From the IMG/VR virus record IMGVR_UViG_3300032307_000691: a stretch of DNA of 64,000 bases. One strand, written 5' to 3'. A model generated the notes under the pieces. That model made no database searches. It saw only the letters and a list, made by a program, of their open reading frames with translations, and had not been told where the DNA came from. Below are positions 2,516 to 54,583 of the stretch, piece by piece (the first letter of the stretch is position 1; each line of letters starts with the position of its first letter). The translations under genes and the position numbers were made by a program. The stretch comes from a virus (Duplodnaviria > Heunggongvirae > Uroviricota > Caudoviricetes).

Positions 2516-3316
2516 ATGAAGCACAAAATGTATGACATAGTATCCGAAGCGGTTAAGGGGGAAGATAACATCAAGAAACTTAAAGAGATGATATCTTATC
2601 TAGTGGATTACAAAAGAAAACAAACCGACACATATAGATTAAGAACCTCAGTACTTGCTGAAAGAAGTGAAGGTTCGGATAATGGTGAACCATTCAAGGA
2701 AGGACCGTTGGTCCTGATGGGTATAGATTTATTCCAACCTGATTTGAACCTCATCAATGGGGTGTTAAAAGATTTGGGTCAAGATATCCAATCCAAAGGT
2801 TACGGGGATATGGAATGTGCGTTCTCCATACATGAAATCATGGTAGAGGTCGGAGGGGTTAAAGTAGATGTGATGACCCTTCTTCCAGCAAACATTAAGA
2901 ATGACCTTAAATATGAACACCCCACACTTCAGGAGGTTCTGTTAGGGGATAATATATTCGAACTAAATAACGATGTATTACCTAAGGTTTCAGAATCACT
3001 CTCCGAGTGGATTGTTAAAATCAAAAAGAAAGGGGTCATCGGTTACGAAGCGTTAAAGAGGGGTACAATTAATGGGGTGTCATACACCCTGTCCCCGAGA
3101 AGGGGTGAAACAGAAGTGACCCCTGAAATTCATGTTACCTTCGGTAAATTAAATCCGGGTCAACAAATCACCCCTAAGATGGTGTACCCCATAATTCATG
3201 TTCGTATTACGTCGGTATCCGACAGAGATAAGTTGTACGAAACCATGGATAAAATCACCGACAAGTACTATAAGATTACCGGTGGTAAAATGGAAATCAG
3301 TACCGGTTTAAGTTAA
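2516..3316 (+). CDS. hypothetical protein (266 aa)
   Basis: ORF 2462..3316 trimmed to first ATG after motif copy 6 (MKHKMYD...). Confidence 0.55.
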   Translation: MKHKMYDIVSEAVKGEDNIKKLKEMISYLVDYKRKQTDTYRLRTSVLAERSEGSDNGEPFKEGPLVLMGIDLFQPDLNLINGVLKDLGQDIQSKGYGDMECAFSIHEIMVEVGGVKVDVMTLLPANIKNDLKYEHPTLQEVLLGDNIFELNNDVLPKVSESLSEWIVKIKKKGVIGYEALKRGTINGVSYTLSPRRGETEVTPEIHVTFGKLNPGQQITPKMVYPIIHVRITSVSDRDKLYETMDKITDKYYKITGGKMEISTGLS

Positions 3317-3344
3317 GAATATAACATATATATTTATATATACA

Positions 3345-3372
3345 CCCTGTCATACGACGGGGTTTTTTTATT
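3345..3372 (+). terminator. rho-independent terminator
   Basis: ccctgtcatacgacgggg hairpin followed by TTTTTTTATTTT. Confidence 0.55.
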
Positions 3373-3611
3373 TTATAACGTTATAAACCTGATACATTTC
3401 CAAAAAAAATAAAATAGTGTTCGTGATTCACACACAGGACAATTCCCGTGGTAGTGTCACAAAGTGGGGAATAGTGGGAGAATCTGGTTTTGTAATACGC
3501 CCAGCTGGAAATATAAAGAAAATATCCGTATATTAGTATATATTTTTCACTACGACAAAAAATGTTCAGATAGTGGGGTTAAAATCGGGGGTTTTTTACC
3601 ATTAATTTGTA

Positions 3612-3806
3612 TTACATATCGGTCGGGGGTTCTTCGAACCCAACCGACGAGTAACTCATAACGGAGGGTAAACCGCTGTACTGACAAATTTCTTCTTCCC
3701 TCTTTTTAACCAGTAGTTCCTTTATATGGGGGTCAAAGTAAACACCATTATCTTCCATATCGGATAGAGGTCGGTGGAGCATGTATTTTGGATTTTCCAT
3801 GACCAT
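3612..3806 (-). CDS. hypothetical protein (64 aa)
   Basis: ORF track; first gene of the long minus-strand block. Confidence 0.35.
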   Translation of the reverse strand: MVMENPKYMLHRPLSDMEDNGVYFDPHIKELLVKKREEEICQYSGLPSVMSYSSVGFEEPPTDM

Positions 3807-3814
3807 ATAACAAA

Positions 3815-4141
3815 TTAAACTACAAAAGGTTCATCACAGTTCGGACATTCTGTAAGGGTGAGTAACTTATTCTTTCTAAACGACCATCCTTCCACCATGG
3901 GTAGTTCCTGTGGGGAGAGTTTTGAATATCCATCCATACATAATACTTCTCCATCTATATCATAGAACCTTCCCTTATATCTGGTTACTATATGGTTTTT
4001 CTCTTTGGAGATATATGGGGTACATCCTTTATACATCTTCTTTAATAAGAGGTGGAATCTATAGCAACCTCCTTCTGTATAGATGTATCTTATGTACCCA
4101 TCTGTATTTCTCAATTCTTCTATGAATGATTCTATATCCAT
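3815..4141 (-). CDS. hypothetical protein (108 aa)
   Basis: ORF track. Confidence 0.5.
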   Translation of the reverse strand: MDIESFIEELRNTDGYIRYIYTEGGCYRFHLLLKKMYKGCTPYISKEKNHIVTRYKGRFYDIDGEVLCMDGYSKLSPQELPMVEGWSFRKNKLLTLTECPNCDEPFVV

Positions 4142-4387: not shown

Positions 4388-5776
4388 TTATATTAATTCA
4401 AGTTGTATTTGCATTGTTTCTTGTTTCCACCCGTTTTTTATTAATCTTTTTCTTACCAACCAAACCACATTCGTGGATACACCCGTTATTTTACGAATAT
4501 CCTTATTTTGTACATTTTTTTTCAATAATTTAATTACTTCGGGGTACTTTTCTTCATAATACTCCATAGTTTTCATATATTCTTTATATCTTAGTAATGG
4601 AGATAATAATTCCTCCCATTTTTCATTTTTTATTCTACAATAATATCCATTTGCATTTTCGTAAAAATCTTTTAATGTTTTATATTCGGATACCTTGTTT
4701 TTACATTGTTCATATGTGTATTTATTCTTTCCCCCACCCAACGAACCACCTTTATTACCGTTTAATATCTTCCAACCATTTTCTTTATATTGACGAATAT
4801 AACGACGTTCTTCATGAGATGCATCCAACATTACCAATTTATCGGTTAAAATCTTAAAATCGAATGATAACCCGGTACTCTCATGATATTCCCTAACTTT
4901 GGATGTTGAACCTTCACACAGGTGGTCGGTTTTTCTTTTCTCAGGATTGTAACTCAAACCAACATAAACAGAACCATCAGGGAATTCAAAAGAGTAAACG
5001 TATCTATAACCCAATGTTGGTAATTTTACCATATGGTCAAGCAACTCATACCACCCATTTCTATAAATGGTCGTTTTAGGTACGTGTGGTAATTCCTTCC
5101 TATTATTATATTTTAACGCACATTCTTTGCATCTCTCATATGTCCAATAACCCGATTTATTCTGTCTCCGTTCAAGAGTATCTAATAAATCTTTCCACCC
5201 ATGTCTGCGAATGTTATCATATAAACTGTAATCCTTCTCCCTTAACTCATAAAGAGATTTATATTTGGTAATCAATTCTTTACATTCATCATATGTTCTT
5301 GATGGAGTTGGTTTTTTATAGTTTGGAAAAAATTCCTCCAACCACCCATTTTGATTACAAACATTATACACGGGTCGATTATTTTCAAAAAGTTCACCGG
5401 GGGATTTGTACATCCCTGAAATACTCTGACATTTTTCATATGTAAATGATTCGTAATCCGCCCTTTCTTTAGGGGTTTTCCGATTCGGATAAAAATCATT
5501 TAACCAACCATATTTCCTAATTGCCTTAGATGCCCCCGGATAATCTCTACTTAGATATGTTATATTTTTATATTTTTTAGATATCTCACTACATTTATCA
5601 TATGACCAAATATCGGGCTCATCGTGATTTGGGTATTTAACAGGGAATAGGTCATCTAAAAGATTATTCTTTTTCGCAAACTTAAATGCTCCACTCCATT
5701 TATTCTGGAGTTCACTACGATGTTTACAGGTTTTCGAAACCTTTAACAACTCCTCGTATGTCCACGTTATCGGCAT
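4388..5776 (-). CDS. GIY-YIG nuclease-domain protein with tandem ~45-aa repeats
   Basis: YVYSFEFPDGSVYVGLS...KRKTDH...NGWKILN matches GIY-YIG; five N-terminal and one C-terminal repeat of the type W/Y-x-Y-E-x-C...KYK...NGW(L/Y)E(E/L)(F/L). Confidence 0.6.
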   Translation of the reverse strand: MPITWTYEELLKVSKTCKHRSELQNKWSGAFKFAKKNNLLDDLFPVKYPNHDEPDIWSYDKCSEISKKYKNITYLSRDYPGASKAIRKYGWLNDFYPNRKTPKERADYESFTYEKCQSISGMYKSPGELFENNRPVYNVCNQNGWLEEFFPNYKKPTPSRTYDECKELITKYKSLYELREKDYSLYDNIRRHGWKDLLDTLERRQNKSGYWTYERCKECALKYNNRKELPHVPKTTIYRNGWYELLDHMVKLPTLGYRYVYSFEFPDGSVYVGLSYNPEKRKTDHLCEGSTSKVREYHESTGLSFDFKILTDKLVMLDASHEERRYIRQYKENGWKILNGNKGGSLGGGKNKYTYEQCKNKVSEYKTLKDFYENANGYYCRIKNEKWEELLSPLLRYKEYMKTMEYYEEKYPEVIKLLKKNVQNKDIRKITGVSTNVVWLVRKRLIKNGWKQETMQIQLELI

Positions 5777-6141
5777 TAGAAGTGATAGTTGAATATCTTA
5801 CAGTATGGATTAAGGTTAGATAAATCAGGGAAGGTTACATCTCCAATACTATTATCATTTATATGGGATATATGGAGTTCAGTGAAATGTTCACAATACT
5901 TCTCATATGTTTTCTTCCCCCCGATGCACCAATCCACGTTTAGATTGATATTATCCCTTATATCAACAATTAGTTCCCTGTCCTTTAGTGTGGGTAGAGA
6001 TTGATATGTCCTATATCCCACCAGAAGTTTGGAATTCAAGGTTAATTTCCTGAAATGTATCAAATCATCAGGGTTCCTCCATAAAAGGTCCTCCCCGATT
6101 CCAATAAACCCGAGATTGTTTGTTGCGATGATTGCTTTCAT
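5776..6141 (-). CDS. folA: dihydrofolate reductase (compact, 121 aa)
   Basis: IIATNNLGFIGIGEDLLWRNPDDLIHFRKLTLNSKLLVGYRTYQSLP...CIGGKKTYEKY aligns with the DHFR N-terminal and GGxxxY motifs. Confidence 0.8.
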   Translation of the reverse strand: MKAIIATNNLGFIGIGEDLLWRNPDDLIHFRKLTLNSKLLVGYRTYQSLPTLKDRELIVDIRDNINLNVDWCIGGKKTYEKYCEHFTELHISHINDNSIGDVTFPDLSNLNPYCKIFNYHF

Positions 6142-6518
6142 TTCTTTTTGGATAGTTCCACCTTAATTCCTTTTATAAGGTATGAAGCGGTCATATAGTT
6201 TGTTGCCAATGGAATATTATATACATTACAGATACGTAATAACATATTCACATCCACCTGATGGGGATGAACATCCAATGGGTCAATAAAGAATAGAACG
6301 GCAGAGATTTCCCCGTCAGCAATCATTGAAGCAATCTGAGCATCACCACCCAACGGACCGGATTTTAAACAGTTTACATCCAATCCCGCATGTTCAATGT
6401 GTTTACCGGTAGTTCCCGTGGCAATTACATCCACCGTTTTGAAGAACTCCAACCTCTTCATGATGAACGCAACCATGTCCGCCTTCTTCCCATCATGAGC
6501 AATTACCGCAATTTTCAT
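6138..6518 (-). CDS. mgsA: methylglyoxal synthase
   Basis: MKIAVIAHDGKK...ATGTTG...SGPLGGDAQIASMIADGEISAVLFFIDPLDVHPHQVD...YNIPLATN aligns along the whole length with E. coli MgsA; catalytic His/Asp/His/Asp positions conserved; start trimmed to the internal ATG of ORF 6138..6566. Confidence 0.8.
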   Translation of the reverse strand: MKIAVIAHDGKKADMVAFIMKRLEFFKTVDVIATGTTGKHIEHAGLDVNCLKSGPLGGDAQIASMIADGEISAVLFFIDPLDVHPHQVDVNMLLRICNVYNIPLATNYMTASYLIKGIKVELSKKK

Positions 6519-6519: not shown

Positions 6520-6741
6520 TTATTTATTTTTCCTCCATCCCCACGGTTCAGGTGCATTACTAGCAAGTGACGCTACATCGACATCTAATGTTTTATCATA
6601 AACAGCAACGTAAGAGTTTCCTCTTTGGGTATCAAGAGTTCTCTCAACTTCCTTTTCGGTATAGAGGGGTTCCAACTCAACCTCACCGTTCTTCCAAGAT
6701 TTCCATACATCGAAATCTTTTAGTTCTTCTAATGTAATCAT
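6520..6741 (-). CDS. hypothetical protein (73 aa)
   Basis: ORF track. Confidence 0.4.
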   Translation of the reverse strand: MITLEELKDFDVWKSWKNGEVELEPLYTEKEVERTLDTQRGNSYVAVYDKTLDVDVASLASNAPEPWGWRKNK

Positions 6742-12380: not shown

Positions 12381-12599
12381 CTAATCACATAATCTCTTGT
12401 GTGTCAGGTTCATACATTTGAGTGAACAGTACTTCATACTACCATTTTTTACCTGATACACATTACCACAACAAATACAAATTCTTTTTGTGTTATAACG
12501 TTTCATTTCCTCCGAATTAGGTTTTTCGGTTTCAAATAGATTACTAAAGAAAGTTTTAATTCGTTTCCACATATTAAAAAGGAAGTTCTTCTCTATCAT
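12381..12599 (-). CDS. small zinc-ribbon protein (72 aa)
   Basis: CICCGN...CSLKC pairs of cysteines. Confidence 0.45.
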   Translation of the reverse strand: MIEKNFLFNMWKRIKTFFSNLFETEKPNSEEMKRYNTKRICICCGNVYQVKNGSMKYCSLKCMNLTHKRLCD

Positions 12600-13473
12600 C
12601 TATCGAACCTGTTCGGAGAGAGTTAGTTATTACTTGATTTATATCCACACCCAAAACCCCCATCAATTGATTTAAATCTAATGAAGTGTTACCAGCCATT
12701 GTTGCTATACTCGCCCCGTTGTTTGATGAAATTGCTTGGGCATATTCTCCCACCGTCAGGTCTTTCTTTTTTATAACCCCTTCAATCTCTTTGTTTTTAC
12801 TAAGGTCATCAACTGTTTCGGATTTCTGAACCTCTTCCGCAAGGATACCGAAGATGTCTGGTGGTAGTGGGAAATTAAACGGACTTGATTCTTTATCATT
12901 TGCTAACCAACCCTGAACGGCACCGCCATGTGAATCACATGAAACCGCCCACTTTCCATTGGTTCTTTTATTGATAATATAAATTAATTTATATCTACTA
13001 CGGTAGTTGTTCCAATGTTGTTGTTGGGTGGTGCACCATTTTGTATTTGAACCATACACTTTTGATGCCTCGTATGAAAGAGGAATCAATACCAACCACG
13101 TATCGGTTTCATATAGTTTCTTAACTTGTTTCTCAACTTCTTTTAATCGAACAATATCATCTGCTTTCTTAACCGCTGTGGTGATGTCCTCAAAGTTTCT
13201 ATATGTTCCAATGTCTGGTTTCTCAATACGATTTGCTCTTGAGTGCTTTTCAAAATCGACAAGTGCGGATAGATTATCATAACCAAAGAGAGTGATGCAA
13301 ATTCCTTTATAAAATGCATCGTAGTTACCCTTCTTCAGGTATTCATCCTTGAGAACCTTGACAAGAAATTGTACATACTTGTAACTGTCAGTTGGTTCAA
13401 CCGATGTAATGATATCCAGTAGTGAAACATTCAACTCAGGATTCTGCTCTTTGATTTTATCTAACCTACTCAT
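12574..13473 (-). CDS. conserved phage protein, paralog of 27881..28861 (family A)
   Basis: Shared block WLVLIPLSYEASKVYGSNTKWCTT vs WVVLRPLTYLASRKYGSSTKWCTA. Confidence 0.55.
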   Translation of the reverse strand: MSRLDKIKEQNPELNVSLLDIITSVEPTDSYKYVQFLVKVLKDEYLKKGNYDAFYKGICITLFGYDNLSALVDFEKHSRANRIEKPDIGTYRNFEDITTAVKKADDIVRLKEVEKQVKKLYETDTWLVLIPLSYEASKVYGSNTKWCTTQQQHWNNYRSRYKLIYIINKRTNGKWAVSCDSHGGAVQGWLANDKESSPFNFPLPPDIFGILAEEVQKSETVDDLSKNKEIEGVIKKKDLTVGEYAQAISSNNGASIATMAGNTSLDLNQLMGVLGVDINQVITNSLRTGSIDDREELPF

Positions 13474-13916: not shown

Positions 13917-13941
13917 TATTTTCGAATATCCAAACTATTTT
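13917..13941 (-). promoter_or_regulatory. GAATATTC-type promoter-like box (minus strand reads AAAATAGTTTGGATATTCGAAAA)
   Basis: Contains TAGTTTGG, the same core as the plus-strand TTAGTTTGGCAA motif. Confidence 0.45.
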
Positions 13942-14396
13942 CCGATGGCATCCTTTTCCGATATTGTGATGGGGTGATGACCAACATAACCTTTCACAAT
14001 ATCAAACACTTCCTTGTTTTGAGACCAAACTATTGAGTGTTCAGATGATGGATTATATTCACCATGAACTAAGTAAACAACAATCGTATTGGGTGTTAGT
14101 GTAAGGAACCCGTGAGCTTTATCATCGGGAATGTAAACCGCATAACCTGAAGTAACATGTTCGTGGTCGACTTCTCCGGTGTTTAAATCCACAGCAAAAT
14201 CTATAATCTCACCTTGGATTACTTTGATGTACTTTCTTTGTGGTGGGTCAGTTTGATAATGTAAACCACGAAAGGTGAAAGGTTTATCGTTGACACTAAT
14301 GGAACATTGTGTCCAGTCCATATCCATAGCTCTTAACCCCACTGGCGTATAAGAACCTCTTTCATCAAAGAATGTTGGGTGTATAATCTTTTCCAT
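13935..14396 (-). CDS. dTDP-4-dehydrorhamnose 3,5-epimerase-like cupin (RmlC family)
   Basis: DERG...RGLHYQ...KYIKVIQGEIIDFAVDL...AHGFLTL...YNPSSEHSIVW match the RmlC His/Lys/Tyr catalytic motifs. Confidence 0.7.
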   Translation of the reverse strand: MEKIIHPTFFDERGSYTPVGLRAMDMDWTQCSISVNDKPFTFRGLHYQTDPPQRKYIKVIQGEIIDFAVDLNTGEVDHEHVTSGYAVYIPDDKAHGFLTLTPNTIVVYLVHGEYNPSSEHSIVWSQNKEVFDIVKGYVGHHPITISEKDAIGK

Positions 14397-15409: not shown

Positions 15410-15814
15410 TTGGAATTAAGAGAAGAATTTAAACCGTACCATCAACACTTATTGATGAAGGTTTGGGTCGAGAATCCGCCCAAGGACGCAAGTGTCCTAA
15501 ACGAATGGTTCATTAACTTGGTTCACGCTGTTGGCATGGAAGTCGTAGGGGGACCTACCAGTGTCTATGTCGATTACCCGGGTAATGAGGGATTAACAGG
15601 TACTGTAACCTTAGCAACATCCCATTCATCAATCCACATTTGGGACCATTATGAACTACCAATGGCTCAGTTTGACATCTACAGTTGTAAATGTTTCACT
15701 TTGGAACAAGTCATGGAATGTTTTAAACCATGGGGACTTGTAAAAGCCGAATGGGTAATGATTGATAGAAACGAATTCCCACAGATTACCGAAACCGGTA
15801 CGTGGGGTGTTTAA
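15410..15814 (+). CDS. speH: pyruvoyl-dependent decarboxylase of the SpeH/AdoMetDC class-1 family
   Basis: VDYPGNEGLTGTVTLATSHSSIHIWDHYELPMAQFDIYSC aligns with B. subtilis SpeH ...[29 protein letters not shown]; lone plus-strand gene in a minus block. Confidence 0.7.
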   Translation: MELREEFKPYHQHLLMKVWVENPPKDASVLNEWFINLVHAVGMEVVGGPTSVYVDYPGNEGLTGTVTLATSHSSIHIWDHYELPMAQFDIYSCKCFTLEQVMECFKPWGLVKAEWVMIDRNEFPQITETGTWGV

Positions 15815-16818
15815 ATCCCATATGGAGTTACACTGAACTTAACTCCCATCACCGAGGGACAGTTCTGTAGTATGTGCATTTCAACCAACTCTTGGAAGTA
15901 TTTGACATCTAATGCATCTCTAAGGACACCGTCGTGATAGTATTTTAATGCTCCCGCATCCTCAAGAATATCTAACTTATTAATGATTAATTCAGTAACA
16001 CCATTGATGTTACACGCTTTAATTAAATCATTAACATTTAACCAATCTATTTGTCTCTTTCTACCGGTGGTTGCGCCGTATTCCTGTCCCAGCTCCCTGA
16101 TGGTTTCAAACACCGGGTCATCACCTTCAAAGTCCTTTGCCCCGACATACGTTCTATATGCCTTGGCAATACCATATACGTTTCTAATACTTTGAGGAGG
16201 AACCCCATTAAGAACCGCACTACCAACGGTACAATGTGATGACGTTACATATGGATAATCACCCCAATCAATATCGAGTTCAAACCCTTGAGCTCCCTCA
16301 AATAGAATGGTACACCACTCTTTACCGTGGAACTCTTCGTAAACATCTATCACCATAGAATTAAGGAACGGAGCGTCAATCGCTCTGATACCTTTACGAT
16401 AGTACTTATCTCGGTAGCAAGGACCATTACCTGTTTTAGTTGTACCAATCTGAGTATCCTTTGAATCCTCTTCAATATGTGAATTGGTAATGATATGTGC
16501 ACGTTTATCGATGAAAAGATAATCCTTTACATTTACCCCATTGTCTTGGAGTTCATTTATCTCTTTTACCAATTTATCGATGTTGATAACACAACCTAAT
16601 CCAATGATTGATTTGATTCCATAGAACACACCAACCGGAACCAAATGGGTTACGAATTTCTTATCGTTATGGTAAACAGTGTGTCCCGCATTACCACCAC
16701 CATTGTATCGAACAACGTGTGTGTATCGATTGGGTTCTTTGGCAAGTGCGTGGGCAACTTTACCCTTACCCGTGTCACCGGCTTGGAGGTCGACAATAAC
16801 GTCTGAATATGAAATCAT
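15811..16818 (-). CDS. purA: adenylosuccinate synthetase (shortened)
   Basis: QAGDTGKGKV...GGNAGHT...IGTTKTGNGPCY...FEGAQG...YPYVTSS...GATTGRKR match the PurA GDEGKGK, GHT, GTTxxGIGP and TTGRxRR motifs. Confidence 0.85.
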   Translation of the reverse strand: MISYSDVIVDLQAGDTGKGKVAHALAKEPNRYTHVVRYNGGGNAGHTVYHNDKKFVTHLVPVGVFYGIKSIIGLGCVINIDKLVKEINELQDNGVNVKDYLFIDKRAHIITNSHIEEDSKDTQIGTTKTGNGPCYRDKYYRKGIRAIDAPFLNSMVIDVYEEFHGKEWCTILFEGAQGFELDIDWGDYPYVTSSHCTVGSAVLNGVPPQSIRNVYGIAKAYRTYVGAKDFEGDDPVFETIRELGQEYGATTGRKRQIDWLNVNDLIKACNINGVTELIINKLDILEDAGALKYYHDGVLRDALDVKYFQELVEMHILQNCPSVMGVKFSVTPYGI

Positions 16819-18352: not shown

Positions 18353-19324
18353 TTAGAATACGTTTAATTGTTTAACTAATGAATGAATGGTTTTGTGTCT
18401 TGAGAACGTATCTACAATGGTTCCGTCTTGGATATCTTTTACACTATTCGTACAGTAGATACCATCAAAGTATTGTACTAAGAAGTCAAACCCCACACTA
18501 AAAATACCATGGGTAACCACTAAGTAGTTCTTACCATAATGTTGTGGTTGAACTGAACTTGATAACTTTCTTTTCTCTTCGATTGCCTTAGCAATTTCAA
18601 TAAAGGTTCTACCACCATCACAAATGTCATCAAAGATGAAGAAGTCCTTATCGGCATCATGTACTGACATTGGTACATCGGTGTAATCAATTGCACCTGT
18701 TTCAATATTACGATGTTTTGATGAGATGATAACGTTGTGTTTGTATTTTACATTCTCAGCAACATGGAATACTTTTTTCAATGCACCAGCGTCAGGAGAA
18801 ACAAACCGAACCTTTTCAAAATTATCGGTACTCCATGTTTCAAATCCTTTTGAAATGAAATAATCACGTAACGCAAAATCGGCAAGGTCTATGTTATCAA
18901 TTTTCTTGAAGTTGCCAATACACGCCTCAAGTACATCACTATGTGGGTCTATGACGGTAACACTATTATAGCCCTGTGAGTTAATAATTGGTGCAATAAC
19001 ATGTTTGATGTAATTAATACCACCATCCATGAATTTTCTATCACTTCTACCACCAATACAATATGGAATGTAGAGGTCAATGTTTTTAACACCAACTTCT
19101 TTCAATGCTTGTGTTGCACAGATGATAAGTTCAAGGTCACTGAATGTATTCAATCTTGATTTGATTTCGATGCCATGGGTCTTATCTGAATCTCTAAGAG
19201 ATTCAAATGTATTGTACCCGTCTTCAATCAATCTTACCGATTGTTGACCATCAGGAAAACGACTAATTTCATATTTGAATGAGAATCTGTCGTTTGGATT
19301 TACGAGATTTAAAGTTTCTGCCAT
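18353..19324 (-). CDS. prs: ribose-phosphate pyrophosphokinase (PRPP synthetase)
   Basis: VRFVSPDAGALKKV and DDICDGGRTF match the Prs VSPDxGGxxRA and DDxxDTGGT PRPP-binding motifs. Confidence 0.75.
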   Translation of the reverse strand: MAETLNLVNPNDRFSFKYEISRFPDGQQSVRLIEDGYNTFESLRDSDKTHGIEIKSRLNTFSDLELIICATQALKEVGVKNIDLYIPYCIGGRSDRKFMDGGINYIKHVIAPIINSQGYNSVTVIDPHSDVLEACIGNFKKIDNIDLADFALRDYFISKGFETWSTDNFEKVRFVSPDAGALKKVFHVAENVKYKHNVIISSKHRNIETGAIDYTDVPMSVHDADKDFFIFDDICDGGRTFIEIAKAIEEKRKLSSSVQPQHYGKNYLVVTHGIFSVGFDFLVQYFDGIYCTNSVKDIQDGTIVDTFSRHKTIHSLVKQLNVF

Positions 19325-19336
19325 TTTGATTTTGTT

Positions 19337-20128
19337 TTAACTTGACCAATGAAGGTAATATTGTTCTTTATTTTCTTTTGATAGCACGTACTTAATTGTG
19401 TCACGAACAATTTCAAGTGCTTGGATGTACCAAGTATTATCACTTTCAGTTACTACATATACACATGGTTGTTCGTTGAAAATCTTGTAGGTACCGGGAA
19501 TCATCGCCAAAACCTTTAGTGGTTCCGCCATATTAAATTCTCCACGTGAGCTTGAATAGTTGTACTTTTCTCTATCATGGTTACGTTCTTTATCCAACTC
19601 TTCCAAGAAGATATCTAACGCATCTTTTTCAGAGTGTACATCAGGTTCTTTAAACATATTTCCTGATACCTGATGGACACGGTATGCCCCTTTCTTTTTG
19701 AATTCTTCAATGGTTTCTTCACAACGAACCAAACAATCTTCCCATTTTGGTTTAAATACGTAATCCTCTTCTTCCTTGTTGAAAATGTCATAGAGGGTTG
19801 GTAAATCTAAATTTCTAAGAATCCTTTCAATACCACTTTCATTGTATGAACTCCTGAAGTAACCAATTTTAAAGTGGTGGTCAGGATAATCGGGATGAGA
19901 CTCTTCAATTTGTTCTTTGTTTGTGTCATCGTCTCCCCATTCATCTAAACCAAGTGATTCGGCGTATTCTTTACACTTTGTTCTAATCTCATCTTTTGTT
20001 TGTTGAGATAGTGTATCGTATTCACCAACTTCACCCCACAATTTATCACTATACTCTTGGTATTTGGTTTGAAGTTCCTGTGTCTTGTTGATATCGTCAT
20101 AACGATATAAATAAATGTCAAGTCCCAT
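19337..20128 (-). CDS. hypothetical protein (263 aa)
   Basis: ORF track; no NMNAT (H/T)xGH motif seen. Confidence 0.5.
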   Translation of the reverse strand: MGLDIYLYRYDDINKTQELQTKYQEYSDKLWGEVGEYDTLSQQTKDEIRTKCKEYAESLGLDEWGDDDTNKEQIEESHPDYPDHHFKIGYFRSSYNESGIERILRNLDLPTLYDIFNKEEEDYVFKPKWEDCLVRCEETIEEFKKKGAYRVHQVSGNMFKEPDVHSEKDALDIFLEELDKERNHDREKYNYSSSRGEFNMAEPLKVLAMIPGTYKIFNEQPCVYVVTESDNTWYIQALEIVRDTIKYVLSKENKEQYYLHWSS

Positions 20129-20129
20129 G

Positions 20130-21650
20130 TTACAATCTATTTAAACGTTTACGAATTTCTGTTAAAGTTATTTGATTATGGAACTGTCCATTCTCATAAA
20201 TCGTTTGGAGAATACCCTGTGATTCTTGCTCCCAAGTACATTGTGTTAATACTTCATGTTCTTCAGTTACACAAATCAAACCCTTCAGGGATTTCTTGGT
20301 ACCATCATCAGTAACTGGGTCCTTATAGATGTCGTAAGAATGATATGTTTCTATCCCCACCTCATCTATTGTTTTTACCTCAAACCAAGCACCTTTAGCT
20401 GCGAAACCTAATGTGTCACGGGTATTCATTTGGTAAGTGAATGAACCAACACCTAATACGATGTTTGTTGCCGCAAATCCTTTAGCTTCTAATCTTCTAT
20501 AGATTTCCAATTGACGTTCTAACGTGATTGAATCACCGTAGATTGCTCCGATGTGTGGGTCAAGAACTTTGTAACCTTTATCATTGATTGTTCCACCAAA
20601 GATGTCCCAAAGTAATTCGATAACACCCTTAGCAGCAGGGTCCGTGACATTCTTATTTTCAGTGTACTGTAGTTCGTCATCGATAGAATAACTAAATCCA
20701 TAATCACCACAAATAATATCCACCGGATTACCTGAGTCAGGACGGATAACCAACTTACCGTCACGAGCCATGATAGCTTCTTTGTTTGCTGGTAAGTATT
20801 CGGTAATCAACTTCCACAAGTCAAATGTGTCAGATACGATTGAAAGGATTCCTTTAGGAAAATCAACCAACCAATCGGCAATCATTTGTTGTTCACCAAC
20901 CGTAAAGATTTTAGTTGTTGATACTGAGTGTTCAGATGCGTTTACTGAGTACACACATACTTGGTCTTCAGGTTCGTTGTAGAAGTAACGAGCACCGGGG
21001 ATGCAAATGATTGTATCAGAACCAAGGAATGAAGATGCGTGTCCTAATCCACTTGATAACATATCCCAAGGACTTAATCCACGTGCGGAGAAGTCATGAC
21101 AAAGGAAAGGAATCAAGAAAGCATTTGACGGGTCTGTCTTCATAACCCACTCAACAACATTACGTCTGTATTGTAGGGCAATTGTTGCTGATGTTGAAGG
21201 TTTCCATGACAATGAACTGATGATTGTTTCCAAGTACAAAGTCAACCATGCAAATCCATCAACAGTATTGATGAAAGTCATGTGAGGTACGTTTGGATTC
21301 GTTTCAATACCTTCGGGTAATGACTTAACACGGATAGGTAGGTACCCTAACTTGTGTAACTCAACGAAGTGTGTTGCATCGTAATCCATTCCAAGATACA
21401 TCGACATATCCTTTCCGAATCTTTCTGCAACCTCAATTGGTTGGTTGAAGAAGTTCTCTTGGAACTCGTCATGTAACCATTTAACAACAAGTTGTTGTCC
21501 GAATGATACAATTTTACTTACACCTCTTGGTGCATACTTAACACTACGTGGAATCCATGTTCCGTACAAACGTGTTGTGTCTTTTGCTAACATTCTTTTG
21601 TGGCCAATCTTATAGCCATCAGTGTAGAATAATGAATTTGGTTTAAACAT
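20130..21650 (-). CDS. nadV: nicotinamide phosphoribosyltransferase
   Basis: TDGYKIGH, KSLPEG, HDFSARG, IRPDSGNP, KDPVTDDGTKKSLKG align with NAMPT. Confidence 0.85.
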   Translation of the reverse strand: MFKPNSLFYTDGYKIGHKRMLAKDTTRLYGTWIPRSVKYAPRGVSKIVSFGQQLVVKWLHDEFQENFFNQPIEVAERFGKDMSMYLGMDYDATHFVELHKLGYLPIRVKSLPEGIETNPNVPHMTFINTVDGFAWLTLYLETIISSLSWKPSTSATIALQYRRNVVEWVMKTDPSNAFLIPFLCHDFSARGLSPWDMLSSGLGHASSFLGSDTIICIPGARYFYNEPEDQVCVYSVNASEHSVSTTKIFTVGEQQMIADWLVDFPKGILSIVSDTFDLWKLITEYLPANKEAIMARDGKLVIRPDSGNPVDIICGDYGFSYSIDDELQYTENKNVTDPAAKGVIELLWDIFGGTINDKGYKVLDPHIGAIYGDSITLERQLEIYRRLEAKGFAATNIVLGVGSFTYQMNTRDTLGFAAKGAWFEVKTIDEVGIETYHSYDIYKDPVTDDGTKKSLKGLICVTEEHEVLTQCTWEQESQGILQTIYENGQFHNQITLTEIRKRLNRL

Positions 21651-22814: not shown

Positions 22815-23546
22815 TTACTGTTCTAATGTTGGTTTAAGCCACAAAATATTTTCCTTGAAAATGTAATTTCTAAGTGCAGGATAATCGTTGAGAATTTTTA
22901 ATGTTTTAATCGTATCGTGTTTGAAACATTTAAATAACTCTTCCCTAATCCTTTCAATTGAAACTACTTTCATTTTTGTTTCGTAATCATAATCTTGGAT
23001 TACCCCGTCCATGAATGGTCCAATCCAAAATCCTTTGGTTACACAAAAACGAATTGCTCTGAGTATCCTCAATGGGTCATCATCAAAGGTTACTTTACAA
23101 TCCAACGGTGTTCTCAAGTAACCTCGTTTTAAATCTTCGATTCCGTTGAAGTAATCGATTAGGTTACCATCGGTATCTTTAGCAATCGCATTTAAAGTGA
23201 AGTCCCTACGAATCAAATCATCGTATAAAGTGCCAGGTTCAATTATTGGTTGTCTTGTGCCGGGAATGTAACCAACCTCTTTACGAGCCATTACAAAATC
23301 GGCAACACCCTGATGTTTATGTCCCACCGGAAACTTTGCTCGTATGGTAAAACAATCAGGTGTAACCAAAAATAATTCAAACCCTTCCTGTTTAAGATAT
23401 TCTTCAAGAATGCCAAACATGGTATGAGCAGAACTAACGTCTTTTAATAAATCATCTGATGGTACTGCAACGTAATCGACATCCTTAGATTCTAATTCAA
23501 GAATCTCGTCTCTAACCTTACCACCCACTTCATAAAATGTAAACAT
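22815..23546 (-). CDS. minimal nucleotidyltransferase (CCA-adding / polyA-polymerase head domain)
   Basis: N-terminal YEVGGKVRDEIL...DVDYV matches the GGxVRD...DxD head-domain motif. Confidence 0.6.
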   Translation of the reverse strand: MFTFYEVGGKVRDEILELESKDVDYVAVPSDDLLKDVSSAHTMFGILEEYLKQEGFELFLVTPDCFTIRAKFPVGHKHQGVADFVMARKEVGYIPGTRQPIIEPGTLYDDLIRRDFTLNAIAKDTDGNLIDYFNGIEDLKRGYLRTPLDCKVTFDDDPLRILRAIRFCVTKGFWIGPFMDGVIQDYDYETKMKVVSIERIREELFKCFKHDTIKTLKILNDYPALRNYIFKENILWLKPTLEQ

Positions 23547-25719: not shown

Positions 25720-25914
25720 TTATAAATTACCGAGATTAAAACGCTTTACTAAGATGTCGTAAAGTGATTTTAATTTGAACGATTTAAACGAATCGTTTTT
25801 GTCAATCACATTTAAGATTACAACATCGTTTTCAACTTCTTTTCTCTTTTCGAATTCGTTAAAAGATTTCTCAAGAGTTTCATCAATCCAATTTTTCATG
25901 TCTTTAGTTTTCAA
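25720..25914 (-). CDS. hypothetical protein (64 aa)
   Basis: ORF track. Confidence 0.4.
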   Translation of the reverse strand: MKTKDMKNWIDETLEKSFNEFEKRKEVENDVVILNVIDKNDSFKSFKLKSLYDILVKRFNLGNL

Positions 25915-26396
25915 AACAAATAAATTTTTGCCCCAAGTGTGAGATTAGTATTTCCATCTCGATACATTTCCTGAAAGGTGTGCAAAGATAGGTATATTGG
26001 ATTTACAATTCTAAAATCAATACCAACCTTACCGACCATCCCATTGTATGTTTTATAGATAGAAGGACCAATCCCGCCACTAATAAACAATCTTTTCGTC
26101 TTTTTGTTCTGATAAACATAGTTTATTAAATAATAAAAGTTTACCGGTTGACTGTTTAGTACAAATGGTTCATTCTGAACAATGTACATGCCCAAAGAAA
26201 TTGGTCTATGACCTAATTCAATTGATGATATGGAATTCTTAGAATTGAATCCATACCCAATGGAATAGAATGTGTTATAGTTTCTCGGTCCATATGATAG
26301 TGAATGGTTAAACAAACGAGAACCAATACCCGGATTTAATTGTGCGGATACTTGAACGCTTGTCAATACCAATAAAACTATAACTAATCTTTTCAT
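25911..26396 (-). CDS. small outer-membrane beta-barrel-like protein
   Basis: Signal peptide ending VSAQ; Y/G/N-rich alternating pattern; C-terminal ...KIYLF aromatic terminus. Confidence 0.5.
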   Translation of the reverse strand: MKRLVIVLLVLTSVQVSAQLNPGIGSRLFNHSLSYGPRNYNTFYSIGYGFNSKNSISSIELGHRPISLGMYIVQNEPFVLNSQPVNFYYLINYVYQNKKTKRLFISGGIGPSIYKTYNGMVGKVGIDFRIVNPIYLSLHTFQEMYRDGNTNLTLGAKIYLF

Positions 26397-27880: not shown

Positions 27881-28861
27881 TTATCCTCTACCCAAGTTGA
27901 TTTCAGGCATTGCTTCTGACATTACCTCACGAATTGTTCGAACTTCGTTCCCCACCAGTCTTTCCTCCATTGGTGCTTCATTCATTTCCATCATTGGTTC
28001 TTGTTCAGTAACCGCCATTTCCATATCCATAGGTTCAGGTTCAATCATACGTGACTTTTCATAAACTTGGGCGAAACTCTCTTCGATTTTTCTATCTTCT
28101 TCACTCAAGAATTGCATGTTTGGTACCGCAAGAACATTTTGAAATTCCTTTCTGATGATTTCCAAAATGAATGTTGGTAATGTTGTTTCCATTGAATCAA
28201 TTCGGTTATCGGTTTGATTCCAAAATGAAAGTTCGGGGTCATCGGCTCTTAACGATTTAAATGCGGCAACTTTTAATCCGGTAAGTTTGTTAATCACATA
28301 AACCAAGATACCTTTCTTTGAATAACGAAGGAAGTATTCAGGATTGCTCTCAGATGCAGTACACCATTTTGTTGATGAACCATATTTGCGAGATGCCAAG
28401 TATGTTAATGGTCTCAATACCACCCACTCATTGTCATTGTGTAATTTAATAACCTGTTTTTCCAAATCCTTCTCCATGGTTTTGATTTCCGCCAAACTAT
28501 TGGCACTCATTACCATTTCGAAATTGGTATACTTTGAAAGGTCATTGTCGGCAATCAAGCCTCTCTCATTGTACTCACAGAATTTTTGAAAAGCTTTGAT
28601 ATCTGATTGGTTGAACATCGTGTCAATCATACGATAGAAGAATATCATTTGGAAGTCGGATATCTCATCTAATTTATTCGGTGAAACATCGAAAGTGTTT
28701 GTGAATTCTCTTTTTATATCTCTAATGTAACTATCGGAATTACGGGTCTTCCTCATTATTCGAAGAAGTGTTTCAACATACTTTGGTTTACCCTCAGGTA
28801 CAAAGATTTTTAAAAGTTCAGCGACGTTGATAACGTTTTCAGAGTTATTTCTTAGATTCAT
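27881..28861 (-). CDS. conserved phage protein, paralog of 12574..13473 (family A)
   Basis: Shared YGSSTKWCTA block. Confidence 0.55.
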   Translation of the reverse strand: MNLRNNSENVINVAELLKIFVPEGKPKYVETLLRIMRKTRNSDSYIRDIKREFTNTFDVSPNKLDEISDFQMIFFYRMIDTMFNQSDIKAFQKFCEYNERGLIADNDLSKYTNFEMVMSANSLAEIKTMEKDLEKQVIKLHNDNEWVVLRPLTYLASRKYGSSTKWCTASESNPEYFLRYSKKGILVYVINKLTGLKVAAFKSLRADDPELSFWNQTDNRIDSMETTLPTFILEIIRKEFQNVLAVPNMQFLSEEDRKIEESFAQVYEKSRMIEPEPMDMEMAVTEQEPMMEMNEAPMEERLVGNEVRTIREVMSEAMPEINLGRG

Positions 28862-33515: not shown

Positions 33516-34169
33516 TTATCCAACAACATTTTGCATGTCATCCAAATGATGGTCGAGTGGACCCATCTCGGAACCAATTTCTCGTTTCTTCAACATCTTG
33601 ATTACTTCATGTAAATCATATGGTTCAAATTCAGGATTACCATCCATACCAACATCCATTCGACGACCATTACTAATCTTTTGGTTATGTGGTAAATGGC
33701 AATGTCCATGAAGATGAACACGACCTTTACGAAGGTTGTTCCAACTTGATATTGGGTAATGACAACATTCAATTGTTTCACCCATATATTCAAATTGTTC
33801 AAACCAAGACACACTCAAGAATAACTTTCGAATATCTCCACGATTCCTATCAATGTGGTGGTCATGATTACCCAAAATCAAATGGATGTTTTGACAAATA
33901 ATTCTATTTCTGAACTCCTCAATCTTTTCAAACCCACCGAATGACCAATCACCCAAGTGAATTAAAATATCATCTTGACCAACAAGTGAATTGATGTTGT
34001 TCACAATTGCGGCGTTCATCTTTTCAATGGTTGGGAAATCCCTTGTTTGATTAACAGGAACATCTCCATTGGGTAACCTCCAATTTGTCACACCACGACA
34101 TATGTTCGTATGTCCGTAATGTGTATCGGATGTAATCCAAACTTTCTTTTCTTTTTCTAACTTAATCAT
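33516..34169 (-). CDS. calcineurin-like metallophosphoesterase
   Basis: SDTHYGH, LGDW and LGNHDHH motifs (DxH...GD...GNHD/E). Confidence 0.7.
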   Translation of the reverse strand: MIKLEKEKKVWITSDTHYGHTNICRGVTNWRLPNGDVPVNQTRDFPTIEKMNAAIVNNINSLVGQDDILIHLGDWSFGGFEKIEEFRNRIICQNIHLILGNHDHHIDRNRGDIRKLFLSVSWFEQFEYMGETIECCHYPISSWNNLRKGRVHLHGHCHLPHNQKISNGRRMDVGMDGNPEFEPYDLHEVIKMLKKREIGSEMGPLDHHLDDMQNVVG

Positions 34170-38130: not shown

Positions 38131-38153
38131 AAAAAACCCCTTTTCAGGGGTTT
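38131..38153 (-). terminator. rho-independent terminator
   Basis: AACCCCTGAAAAGGGGTT followed by a U-run on the minus strand; overlaps the stop of 38144..38719. Confidence 0.55.
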
Positions 38154-38719
38154 AAAAATTGAATTATTTTGTCTTTTATTCCTGACTGTTTTATGCCTTC
38201 ATTACCCTTGGGTGTGAGGACAAAGTTATCTAATCCCCAATCTTTCCAATCCTCACCGTTTTTACCCATATCCAAATCATCGATGGAAACCCAATGAGTA
38301 ACTTCAGGGTGGTCATGTAAGAATTGTCTTATCTCAATAACACGAGTCATCTCTAAATCCCAACGTGGGGACCAAATCCAAACCTTATCATTGTACCAAT
38401 TACATTGACCTAAGTTAGTGGTTACCGCAATTGGTTTTTTGATGATACCTTGAAGTTCATAGTATTCACCCAATTCATCCAAGTTTGCATGGTGTTTCCA
38501 ATCAGAACTTATAACGATTTCTGCACCGGTTTCTTCTAAGATTTGATTAAGTACTTCGACCGCTTTCTTGTTAAAGTTGTCAAATCGATACTGTAATGGA
38601 ATTTCTCTACTTGACATGGATAGTTTACGTCCACCCCATTTGTCTTGTTTCTTGTAACGACCCCCCCACTCTGAGGATAAACAGATTACTCCGTCATGGT
38701 CTAAAAATATAACTTTCAT
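38144..38719 (-). CDS. HAD-superfamily phosphatase (PNK 3'-phosphatase-like)
   Basis: MKVIFLDHDGVI DxDGV motif; tandem paralog of 38722..39294. Confidence 0.55.
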   Translation of the reverse strand: MKVIFLDHDGVICLSSEWGGRYKKQDKWGGRKLSMSSREIPLQYRFDNFNKKAVEVLNQILEETGAEIVISSDWKHHANLDELGEYYELQGIIKKPIAVTTNLGQCNWYNDKVWIWSPRWDLEMTRVIEIRQFLHDHPEVTHWVSIDDLDMGKNGEDWKDWGLDNFVLTPKGNEGIKQSGIKDKIIQFLNP

Positions 38720-38721
38720 AA

Positions 38722-39294
38722 TTAATAGTTCATTTCTATGACGGTTTTATCCAACATTGCCTTGGCTATTTCGTAATAGTGTTGGTTAAAACCATCTTTG
38801 TTTCTCGGTGAAGGTAACACATGGACAAAATGATTTCTTTGTCCATATAACATATCGGAATCATCATCTATGATAATGTAGTTCTCTACACCAGATTCAT
38901 CCATTATTTTTTGTTGTTCCTCTTCTGACCAATTTATATGGTGAAATTTTAAATCATTCTCTAAGTAGTACTGAATCTCTAAACCTCTTGGTATGTGTAG
39001 TTTTGATGTCCTCAATGATGGTGTGATTCCAATAATCTCACCACTCATGTTTTCGTACTCCCACACCTTTTTCATAAACTCAATTCCACTCATTCTCCAA
39101 GTGGATGAAATCACAATCTTTGCCCCCGTTTCCTCGATGAGTTTGTTTAATAGGTCTTTACTATTAACACAAAATCTTTGGTAATGGTCCTTACGACCAT
39201 CTTCCCATACCCATTCTTGGTATTGACATTCACCAGCTCGGTAAGCATTTTCACAATTCAATACACCATCAATATCTAAAAAGATTATCTTCAT
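38722..39294 (-). CDS. HAD-superfamily phosphatase, tandem paralog
   Basis: MKIIFLDIDGVLNC; ...ISSTWR / ...ISSDWK shared. Confidence 0.55.
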   Translation of the reverse strand: MKIIFLDIDGVLNCENAYRAGECQYQEWVWEDGRKDHYQRFCVNSKDLLNKLIEETGAKIVISSTWRMSGIEFMKKVWEYENMSGEIIGITPSLRTSKLHIPRGLEIQYYLENDLKFHHINWSEEEQQKIMDESGVENYIIIDDDSDMLYGQRNHFVHVLPSPRNKDGFNQHYYEIAKAMLDKTVIEMNY

Positions 39295-41914: not shown

Positions 41915-41940
41915 TATTTTTTAGAATATCTTAAATAAAA
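41915..41940 (-). promoter_or_regulatory. GAATATTC-type promoter-like box (AGATATTCTAAAAAA)
   Basis: Overlaps the stop of 41931..43319; upstream of a small unlisted ORF (~41683..41838). Confidence 0.35.
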
Positions 41941-43319
41941 TCGAATTTTTCTTTCTTTATTTCTAAATTCGAGAAGTTTTCCATCCTTTTGTTTAAGATT
42001 TCTATGGATTTGCTAAACAATTTATCTACCGGAGTATTAGCTTTACCATATGATTGTGATAGCTTACCCTTACGATATTGTAAGTTTATCGTCTTTTTAT
42101 TATGTGTCATTGAGAGATAAACATATGAGAGTGCCGTAACAAATTGTTTACCCATACAATTTTTCATATTATATCCTTCAGTTATGAAATCATCTTCAGT
42201 TTTTAAAACTCTAATCTCAAATTTTTCATCATCAATTATGATTGGTATTTCAATCTGATTAACGAAATCACCTGAGTGACTCACCCTAACTCTATAACCT
42301 TTTTTAAAGTGGTTTTTTAAACTCTCCCATTTTTTAAACATTAATTCAAAACTGTCATCATCTTTAGCAATGAATTTAACTTCCATATTTTTATTTGAAA
42401 GGAATTCTCTAATGGTGAGAACTTCATTTAATGAGTGTACCAATGAACTGGTTTGTAATCCTGACTTCTCCCAATTATTAAACAACTGCACTAAGTATTT
42501 TTTCTCGGATTCGTTTTTTAATGTGTGGTAACGGTTGTTCGCAACATTAATTCCACAACTATGTTCCATCCAATTAATTTGTTTTATATAATCAATATAA
42601 TTCTCACCAAACAATCTACAGATGTAACTCAATGTTCTAATGTTCACATCTCTTTCTTGTGCTTTGTTTATTTCACCAATTAGATATTTGTTTTTGATTC
42701 CATACGAATCAAGAACTGACGGTATGAATTTATATTCATTCTCCTTTAACCATTTTGATTTGGGGTAGTCATGTAGAAGGGAGTAGTAAACACCATCATG
42801 GCCTTTTATTTTCTTCCTATCCAAATGAAAGTCAACAATCAAATCATAGAAACTATTGAGGTTTGTTTTGTTAACGTAATCTTTATCCTTGAGGTGTTCA
42901 CTCTCAATTAATGGGGTTAATCTTGACACGAGATATCTAACAACATCATCACATGCTCGTTTATATTTTACTCCCCAATAATTGGTTCTCTTCTCACCTT
43001 TCAAACAACCATTTTCAGTTAGGTCCAATAGATAATCAAATCTATTATCGCCTCTCTTACTTTTATTCTTTATCATTTCTTCACCCAAACTTTCATTTAC
43101 CAATTGATAGTAAACGTTGAAGTTCCCACTCTTTAATTTCAAACTAAATCCATGGGAGATTAAAATCTTTTTGAGCTTGCCGAATCTTTTATAATCAAAT
43201 GAGAACTCGGAATAGAAATGTATATCTTCTGAGGTTTCATATAACCTCATCTCACAAACATATTCGAGATTTGTTTTGCGTTCTTTTTTAACTTGTCGGT
43301 GATTAACCAATAAATCCAT
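41931..43319 (-). CDS. large conserved phage protein, paralog of 43365..45245 (family B)
   Basis: Shared blocks IPSVLDSYGIKNKY / LLSVLDSYGIKSKF and EGYNMKNCMGKQF / EGSFMHHCVASYANK. Confidence 0.55.
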   Translation of the reverse strand: MDLLVNHRQVKKERKTNLEYVCEMRLYETSEDIHFYSEFSFDYKRFGKLKKILISHGFSLKLKSGNFNVYYQLVNESLGEEMIKNKSKRGDNRFDYLLDLTENGCLKGEKRTNYWGVKYKRACDDVVRYLVSRLTPLIESEHLKDKDYVNKTNLNSFYDLIVDFHLDRKKIKGHDGVYYSLLHDYPKSKWLKENEYKFIPSVLDSYGIKNKYLIGEINKAQERDVNIRTLSYICRLFGENYIDYIKQINWMEHSCGINVANNRYHTLKNESEKKYLVQLFNNWEKSGLQTSSLVHSLNEVLTIREFLSNKNMEVKFIAKDDDSFELMFKKWESLKNHFKKGYRVRVSHSGDFVNQIEIPIIIDDEKFEIRVLKTEDDFITEGYNMKNCMGKQFVTALSYVYLSMTHNKKTINLQYRKGKLSQSYGKANTPVDKLFSKSIEILNKRMENFSNLEIKKEKFDFI

Positions 43320-46046: not shown

Positions 46047-46309
46047 TCGTCAATATTGAAATCATCATTCAAGTACTCTTGGTACTTTACTTGAATCATG
46101 TGTGTGTAATGTTGTTCTCTTGTGTGTCTTTGGATAGTTTCAACAACCGCATCCGCGTGTCCCTGTCCAAACTTTTCTACCATCTCGGTATACTCATCAG
46201 TATTTTCGAAGTCCAATAAATGGTCAACCACCTCATATACTTTAGTGGATGCTAATGGTTCGAAATCATCAAAGGTTAGTTTTAAATTTTCCATAACAAT
46301 AAATATCAA
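46043..46309 (-). CDS. hypothetical protein (88 aa)
   Basis: ORF track. Confidence 0.45.
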   Translation of the reverse strand: MIFIVMENLKLTFDDFEPLASTKVYEVVDHLLDFENTDEYTEMVEKFGQGHADAVVETIQRHTREQHYTHMIQVKYQEYLNDDFNIDE

Positions 46310-54580: not shown

Positions 54581-54583
54581 TGG

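Follow-up and report, generated by a model that had tools for sequence, protein, structure and literature searches.

The subject of this analysis is a gene for a predicted methylglyoxal synthase (MGS, MgsA) in a 64,000-nucleotide stretch of the virus record IMGVR_UViG_3300032307_000691 (Caudoviricetes), hereafter referred to as the window. The open reading frame (ORF) occupies positions 6138-6518 of the minus strand, is bounded by an ATG at 6518-6516 and a TGA at 6140-6138, and was recognized by ORF, profile and fold analysis as coding for an MgsA of 126 amino acids (aa) in the short form, i.e. without the C-terminal tail of the E. coli type; the public gene calls on the source scaffold gave the identical 126-aa product. 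The motifs ATGTTG (residues 32-37), SGPLGGD (53-59), FFIDPL (76-81), PHQVD (85-89) and NIPLATN (101-107) are all present, and the ORF, its length and its motifs were thus recovered as described in the initial annotation of this DNA. Two longer readings of the gene (139 and 142 aa) were rejected: their starts are located inside the preceding gene, and the homologues begin at MKIAVIAHD.

By every computable criterion, the predicted protein is a bona fide, stand-alone MgsA. The curated NCBIfam equivalog models for MgsA (EC 4.2.3.3) were both passed with residues 1-121 aligned (NF003559: 163.4 bits at a cut-off of 84; TIGR00160: 154.3 bits at a cut-off of 146.9), in line with the full-length match to the bacterial enzyme that had been claimed initially; the generic MGS-like domain of Pfam (MGS, PF02142) was matched at 2.9e-15, and a sequence search of the PDB retrieved methylglyoxal synthases exclusively (E-values 6.7e-34 to 1e-25). 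In the alignment to E. coli MgsA (the reference was checked as identical to 1B93), the catalytic residues His19, Asp20, Asp71, Asp91, His98 and Asp101 correspond to His8, Asp9, Asp59, Asp79, His86 and Asp89 of the window protein, so that the His/Asp/His/Asp positions stated to be conserved are indeed intact; Asp71 is the catalytic base of the E. coli enzyme. Likewise, the phosphoryl-binding residues Lys23, Thr45, Thr47, Thr48 and Ser65/Gly66 are found as Lys12, Thr34, Thr36, Thr37 and Ser53/Gly54. All 14 checked residues (catalytic, phosphate-binding and allosteric-path, including Pro92 and Arg107) are present in the window protein and invariant among the 48 unique sequences of its clade.

The structural comparison led to the same assignment. 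An AlphaFold (AF2) model based on an alignment of 39 sequences (pLDDT 94, pTM 0.88) was compared with the PDB using Foldseek: the best 26 matches were all true MGS (TM 0.85-0.90, root-mean-square deviation 1.6-2.0, 41-52% identity), followed by the MGS-like domains of CarB (TM 0.66-0.70, about 0.68; 15-16% identity) and of PurH/ATIC (TM 0.5-0.6). Identity as a CarB or PurH MGS-like domain was therefore rejected, since both rank below every true MGS and the ORF consists of a single 126-aa domain; the initial annotation had named a profile assignment to PurH or CarB as the result that would speak against its reading, and MgsA was obtained instead, by profile and by structure. As judged from these sequence and model comparisons, the gene most likely encodes a catalytically competent MGS, predicted to convert dihydroxyacetone phosphate (DHAP) to methylglyoxal and phosphate (EC 4.2.3.3).

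With regard to its subtype, the window MGS lacks the first 11 residues of the E. coli protein and ends 14 alignment columns early (E. coli residues 139-152), with the result that the C-terminal helix carrying Arg150 is absent; none of the 48 aligned unique clade sequences possesses this Arg150 tail. The helix is a feature of the long-form subtype, to which the window protein does not belong, and does not define MgsA as such. In the E. coli enzyme, the phosphate signal is transmitted by two routes, the inter-subunit salt bridge Asp20-Arg150 and a path via Pro92/Arg107/Val111 (Zareian et al. 2012, PMC4133812); the latter is kept in the window MGS as Pro80, Arg95 and Val99. Phosphate is an allosteric inhibitor of MGS, for which a role in phosphate deficiency has been proposed; both the Thermus and the E. 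coli enzymes are hexamers, and the tail-less Thermus MGS has a Hill coefficient of 1.5 versus 3.4 in E. coli, which rose to 1.99 when the tail was grafted onto the Thermus protein (PMC4133812). Because the Pro92/Arg107/Val111 route is kept but the Asp20-Arg150 route is lost, the phage MGS is predicted, by analogy with the Thermus enzyme, to show a weaker phosphate cooperativity. The short form is not a phage-specific deregulation, as the enzymes of Thermus, Bacillus and Borrelia are also short.

The exact MGS protein is encoded both on a 318,562-bp ENA scaffold and on a JGI contig, which agree in their gene order. The window has a GC content of 35% and consists of nearly all minus-strand small ORFs, with no tRNA genes among its 64 kb; its annotations include NAMPT, PRPP synthetase, a PurA-like protein, ThyA, dihydrofolate reductase (DHFR), glycosyltransferases, a DNA methylase, a CCA-adding enzyme, HAD_SAK_2 proteins, PcfJ-like proteins and a tryptophan-halogenase-like flavoprotein. 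Just beyond the window end (L099 1-8048, scaffold 180-188 kb), a protein of 3313 aa with a Peptidase_S74 tail-fibre chaperone domain is encoded. Three further large ORFs (326, 324 and 528 aa) come next, the 528-aa one corresponding to window positions 62278-63864, and the 3313-aa gene and these ORFs probably constitute a tail-fibre module. The MGS gene is flanked on both sides by PHROG-matching, phage-typical genes, as is expected of an auxiliary metabolic gene (AMG). The best cultured matches of the window accessory proteins (34-68% identity) were found in T4-like cyanophages, Ralstonia and Tenacibaculum jumbo phages and a Leptolyngbya phage; a DNA search of the GenBank phages with the window gave no match.

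A pattern scan of IMG/VR revealed relatives of the MGS on 103 viral contigs, which is to be read as a lower bound (at least 103); the 80 loci kept for comparison encode proteins of 67-91% identity on contigs of 30-43% GC and up to 294 kb in length, among them four independent contigs of about 270 kb. In consequence, the claim that the MGS is phage-encoded was substantiated by the viral contigs, the surrounding phage genes and the tail-fibre gene on the scaffold. In the protein database, hundreds of 90%-identity clusters shared more than 80% identity with the window MGS. PHROGs v4 contained no MGS family, BFVD yielded no structural match to the MGS at E <= 1e-3, and PADLOC reported no defence-system match for the MGS, the DHFR, the flanking ORFs or the cREC neighbour. 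A tblastn search of GenBank phages with the MGS returned 22 matches, all below 50% identity and all unannotated, of which two were sampled by reading their gene context. Both were rejected as phage MGS: MT835478.1 ("Bacteriophage sp.", UNVERIFIED) carries the gene order PBP2-MinD-RodA-MgsA-DacA and OR846639.1 ("Enterococcus phage", UNVERIFIED) contains KsgA and ABC transporters, i.e. both represent bacterial chromosome. These two records carry the host mgsA and are a source of spurious phage MGS matches; database hits of this kind need context checks. Taken together, MGS is absent from the catalogued phage resources that were checked (PHROGs, BFVD and the sampled GenBank records) and common in uncultured large phages; the initial description of a phage MGS as unusual holds for cultured and catalogued phages but not for uncultured large ones, where the gene is common and has been listed in surveys.

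In a library of representatives at 50% identity, the identity to the window MGS falls from 63-70% to at most 56% for all others; above this break, the contigs of two representatives (P0121 and P0123) were checked, and both showed phage-like contexts. A neighbour-joining tree of 120 sequences united the window and all IMG/VR sequences in one clade. In 30 bootstrap resamplings, the high-identity representatives P0121, P0228, P0157 and P0126 alone joined this clade more than three times, P0228 and P0157 being short fragments, and stray representatives did so in one to three resamplings each. Eight residues (Met20, Lys21, Arg22, His40, Ala44, Val88, Met92 and Tyr108) form a signature of the clade, all of them outside the checked functional set. 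Compared with 62 gap-free relatives, the median synonymous divergence (pS) was 0.78 and thus saturated, and the median nonsynonymous divergence (pN) was 0.13; low pN at saturated pS implies long-term purifying selection on the MGS. Judged by these sequence comparisons, the gene thus belongs to a virus-specific, monophyletic MgsA clade, which occurs on more than 100 large phage contigs from the environment and is strongly constrained by purifying selection. Three further representatives (P0122, P0124 and P0131; 332-627 aa) contain two or three tandem MGS domains joined by low-complexity linkers; these proteins have a eukaryotic appearance and no relation to the phage clade.

A cellular donor did not emerge from these comparisons. 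Scanning 185,579 species genomes for 8-mers taken from the window itself, an approach that is blind to distant relatives but would have detected a close cellular donor, revealed only six relatives, from Rikenellaceae and Alistipes (41-46% identity), and the identity to solved MGS from different phyla was uniformly 41-52%. In the closest cellular-looking relative (56% identity; L094 3678-5033), mgsA directly follows a gene for a PstS-like phosphate-binding protein, and the locus also holds a Bacteroidota-style M43 peptidase gene; the PstS-like neighbour is a single hint tying this MgsA branch to phosphate handling. These data also bear on the explanation that the MGS is not a phage gene at all, but either host DNA, the contig having been misassembled or misclassified, or a neutral passenger of recent arrival. 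Errors of this kind are common, as seen from the sampled GenBank "phage" records that proved to be bacterial chromosome fragments, and the GC content at third codon positions of the MGS (0.425) lies about 1.7 standard deviations over the window mean. However, independent assemblies show the same gene order around the MGS, which is embedded among overlapping phage ORFs on a scaffold that also encodes a giant tail-fibre protein; the clade is represented on more than 100 viral contigs, and a close cellular copy was not found in the genome scan or the library of representatives. A recent passenger is ruled out because synonymous change is saturated while the protein is conserved, and the explanation as a whole is considered very improbable.

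The MGS gene is part of a train of co-directional minus-strand ORFs that runs from 7085 to 3815 with all junctions at 0-4 nt; a promoter/terminator scan of this train gave no signal above shuffled expectation. Upstream, an ORF of 73 aa (6520-6741, minus) ends with its TAA 1 nt before the MGS start; it had no match in Pfam, PHROG or PADLOC, and also lies upstream of the MGS in the relatives L087-L089. Downstream, a short DHFR of 121 aa is encoded (5776-6141, minus; Pfam DHFR_1 at 2e-18 in two stretches, PHROG 316 at 1.2e-20), directly succeeded by an ORF of 462 aa (4388-5776, minus) resembling GIY-YIG homing endonucleases (PHROG 20046 at 3.6e-27; the Pfam GIY-YIG value of 2e-4 is just under the cut-off). 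The two metabolic genes overlap in an ATGA junction (6138-6141, minus): the MGS, as the upstream gene, has its stop TGA (6140-6138) overlapping the start ATG (6141-6139) of the DHFR as the downstream gene, the reverse of the initially reported overlap of the MGS start with the DHFR stop.

The window DHFR, with 121 aa versus about 157-159 aa in canonical enzymes, lacks about 24 internal residues relative to the DHFRs of the PDB and has a truncated C-terminus; the Asp27 equivalent and the GG motif are kept. The short form was recovered at the same length from 54 IMG/VR contigs, the longest of which measures 434 kb; ThyA, PurA-like and RmlC-like genes usually lie nearby. From its sequence, the protein may represent a minimal phage DHFR. 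None of the 80 IMG/VR MGS loci has a DHFR near the MGS, none of the 54 short-DHFR loci has an MGS within 4 kb, and the one IMG/VR contig that holds both genes has them about 35 kb apart. The adjacency is limited to the nearest relatives of the window, and even in L087, whose MGS is 98% identical, an unannotated ORF of 356 aa (2877-3947) separates the MGS from the DHFR; the differing ORFs around the DHFR in the window and in L087 suggest a mobile-element turnover at the locus. A functional MGS-DHFR pair was rejected on the grounds of the absent co-occurrence in the IMG/VR loci and the insertion between the genes in L087. Because DHFR is absent from the MGS loci, MGS is absent near the short DHFRs and an insertion separates the two in L087, the ATGA overlap, and with it the coupling to DHFR proposed in the initial annotation, reflects the ordinary dense packing of phage genes at a locus reshuffled by mobile endonucleases rather than a functional pairing.

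The neighbours are far less conserved than the MGS itself, and few of the window proteins encoded within 22 kb recur in the 80 loci. The commonest genes near the MGS code for a metallophosphoesterase (30 loci), cREC_REC (28), ThyA (15) and a ClpP-like protease (15); also frequent are GIY-YIG and HNH endonucleases, RNA ligases of the T4 Rnl1 and the Rnl2/PHA02142 types, an AAA_33 kinase, an XPD-like helicase and a CCA-adding enzyme. No conserved partner gene was found beside the MGS in these loci, the immediate neighbours differing by sublineage: the MGS behaves as a stand-alone module among early-type, nucleotide-metabolism and RNA-repair genes of large phages. This neighbourhood, with the metallophosphoesterase, cREC_REC, both RNA ligase types and the AAA_33 kinase as commonest members, could be taken to indicate that the MGS scaffold serves another phosphate-elimination or phosphate-handling reaction, perhaps tied to RNA repair, and the clade's own signature residues would fit such a change. 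Yet the phage protein retains all residues with which E. coli MGS contacts DHAP or phosphate, none of the signature residues is among them, and it is about 50% identical to characterized MGS enzymes. Moreover, the sublineages have no neighbour in common, so that the RNA-repair setting looks like a shared placement in the early region. Since no active-site residue differs, a changed substrate is regarded as improbable; the active site lends no support to the different phosphate elimination that had been raised initially as an option for the MGS fold.

Several further features of the window were recorded. Nucleotide and cofactor metabolism is represented by a PurA-like adenylosuccinate synthetase homologue (15811-16818, minus; 335 aa and thus short), by PRPP synthetase and NAMPT as an NAD salvage pair (18353-21650, minus) separated by an ORF of 263 aa (19337-20128), and by a ThyA homologue of 400 aa with insertions and a C-terminal extension (46306-47508, minus). 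The PHROG label of the PurA-like protein denotes a PurZ-like family, but a PurZ (Z-genome) reading was rejected, the PDB match to cellular PurA being at about 1e-58 versus 1e-13 to 1e-18 for PurZ. The NAMPT shares 68% identity with its counterpart in Leptolyngbya phage Lbo-JY46 and 60% with those of the Tenacibaculum jumbo phages PTm1 and PTm5. In addition, an RmlC-like dTDP-4-dehydrorhamnose epimerase cupin (13935-14396, minus) and a small S-adenosylmethionine-decarboxylase-like ORF (15455-15814, plus) are encoded. The window also holds a DNA N6/N4 methylase (48972-49730, minus) and a plus-strand block (50286-55687) of five ORFs, four of which are GT1/GT2-type glycosyltransferases; together with the ThyA homologue, these genes could serve in DNA or surface glycan modification. 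An RNA-repair theme is formed by two tandem HAD_SAK_2 proteins (38144-39294), a CCA-adding enzyme (22815-23546) and a metallophosphoesterase (33516-34169), all on the minus strand. A tryptophan-halogenase-like flavoprotein (59296-60831, minus) and a DUF401-like membrane protein (56792-57796, minus) have their best cultured matches in T4-like cyanophages (34-39% identity); an Asp/Arg beta-hydroxylase-like protein (56235-56795, minus) is also encoded. Moreover, there are two adjacent large PcfJ-like proteins (41931-43319 and 43365-45245, minus) and two paralogues of about 300 aa (12574-13473 and 27881-28861, minus), both of which match phrog_17056. Two predicted secreted or outer-membrane-like proteins (25911-26396 and 57784-58746, minus) possess signal peptides ending in "...SAQ" or "...NAQ", which is presumably typical of Bacteroidota and gives a weak hint at the host.

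As to the role of the enzyme, the best explanation of the data, to which a probability of roughly 0.55 is assigned, is that of a short-form MgsA recycling phosphate via a methylglyoxal bypass, a role inferred rather than observed. According to this proposal, the MGS would open the bypass in the infected host and free the phosphate locked in triose phosphates, so that carbon flow could continue while the phosphate enters nucleotides for a very large genome; the methylglyoxal would have to be dealt with by host glyoxalases, since neither the window nor the flanks examined revealed a gene for its detoxification. Indeed, the window gave no Pfam match to glyoxalase or other methylglyoxal-handling genes, no GloA homologue was detected in the window and the 80 loci at E <= 1, and pstS, phoH, glyoxalase and DJ-1 genes were all missing from the 64-kb window and the flanks examined. 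The same phage encodes NAMPT, PRPP synthetase, the PurA-like enzyme, ThyA and DHFR alongside the MGS, and the surrounding genes do not discriminate among the proposed roles.

Several points weigh against phosphate recycling. For the underlying identification, the margin over the TIGR00160 cut-off is only 7 bits. The context is not specific to phosphate, given the lack of pstS, phoH and glyoxalase genes in the window and the flanks examined. Methylglyoxal damages DNA and proteins and could harm the phage as well. Finally, set against the phosphorus demand of a 318-kb genome, the triose-phosphate pool is small; any benefit would therefore have to come from flux and not from pool size.

Among the competing explanations, phosphate recycling or triose-phosphate relief is ranked first, the deliberate production of methylglyoxal second and carbon re-routing third. 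The toxicity of methylglyoxal is well established, and the compound itself might be the purpose of the gene, either arresting host growth and macromolecular synthesis in the course of takeover or poisoning co-infecting competitors. The intact and strongly conserved enzyme would be in agreement with such a function, as would the lack of a detoxification gene alongside the MGS in the window and the flanks examined. The same holds for the missing tail, by which E. coli MGS is kept under tighter control by phosphate; its absence would favour a less restrained output. However, methylglyoxal attacks guanine and arginine indiscriminately and would expose the DNA and proteins of the phage, in which no protective function was identified, and many bacteria, such as Thermus and Bacillus, normally have an MGS without the tail; this explanation is accordingly considered unlikely. 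Slightly less likely still is a re-routing of carbon and energy, in which DHAP would be drained away from lower glycolysis to D-lactate and pyruvate without need of phosphate or ADP, relieving sugar-phosphate stress or rebalancing the metabolism in concert with the NAD and PRPP genes of the phage. It is in keeping with the remodelled nucleotide and cofactor supply indicated by the NAMPT, PRPP synthetase, PurA-like, ThyA and DHFR genes of the window and with the relief of sugar-phosphate stress that has been proposed as a role of cellular MgsA (PMC4133812). On the other hand, it largely coincides with phosphate recycling, from which it can hardly be distinguished; the bypass gives no ATP, and the window revealed no further gene of glycolysis or the pentose-phosphate pathway.

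Beyond the phosphate-recycling role of the single enzyme, a more far-reaching proposition is that a jumbo-phage clade deliberately switches on the methylglyoxal bypass, be it as a toxin (for takeover or the exclusion of competitors) or as a hitherto unrecognized form of internal phosphate recycling; this is put forward as a doubtful, speculative possibility. If true, methylglyoxal metabolism would be part of the phage-host conflict. The product of MgsA is toxic and its benefit to cells is debated, and a conserved viral clade says that the reaction pays during infection. In the case of phosphate recycling, an internal route would be added to the known phosphorus-acquisition genes of phages; in the case of methylglyoxal itself being the purpose, the MGS would represent a new kind of virus-made metabolic toxin.

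Among the known enzymes, the phage MGS most resembles the single-domain MGS of about 125-135 aa from Thermus sp. GH5 (2X8W/2XW6), T. thermophilus (1WO8), B. subtilis (6F2C) and Borrelia (8U2V), with which it shares 48-52% identity (TM 0.88-0.90), identical active-site and phosphate-binding residues and the lack of a C-terminal Arg tail; the B. subtilis MgsA is under the control of Crh. Unlike these bacterial short-form enzymes, it is phage-encoded and forms part of a distinct clade that contains only viral members and has signature residues not shared with them. With E. coli MgsA (1B93/1EGH/1IK4; 41-43% identity), the fold, the catalytic residues and the Pro92/Arg107/Val111 path are shared, whereas the 11 N-terminal residues and the Arg150 helix of the E. 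coli protein are missing in the phage MGS. The MGS-like domains of CarB and PurH/ATIC belong to the same Rossmann-like superfamily (PF02142) at 12-17% identity, but reside inside large multidomain enzymes and do not have the MGS catalytic set, in contrast to the stand-alone phage protein.

Viral mgsA genes have been listed before: in a virome of Lake Baikal, mgsA was located on a scaffold of 120 kb, assigned to the T4-like Caulobacter phage Cr30, which accounted for up to 8.8% of reads (PMC8066274), and the gene has been reported as a viral AMG from a plastisphere virome (PMC12397222) and a brine-pool virome (bioRxiv 2024.01.25.577265). These surveys document the same gene family on viral scaffolds as an entry in AMG tables; they tabulate the KEGG match and do not treat active site, phylogeny, selection, distribution or function. 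A full-text search of the literature revealed no relevant link of methylglyoxal synthase to jumbo phages, phage genomes or RNA ligases. The phosphate-related AMGs of aquatic T4-like phages are pstS, phoH and phoA. If the recycling role is right, the phage MGS would share their purpose of easing the phosphorus limitation of phage DNA synthesis; these genes act in uptake and scavenging, whereas the MGS would release phosphate internally from a glycolytic intermediate. The accessory genes of aquatic T4-like cyanophages resemble those in the window. In summary, the enzyme family and its occurrence in viruses were already known; new are the large, monophyletic and constrained phage clade and the corrected relation of the MGS to the DHFR gene.

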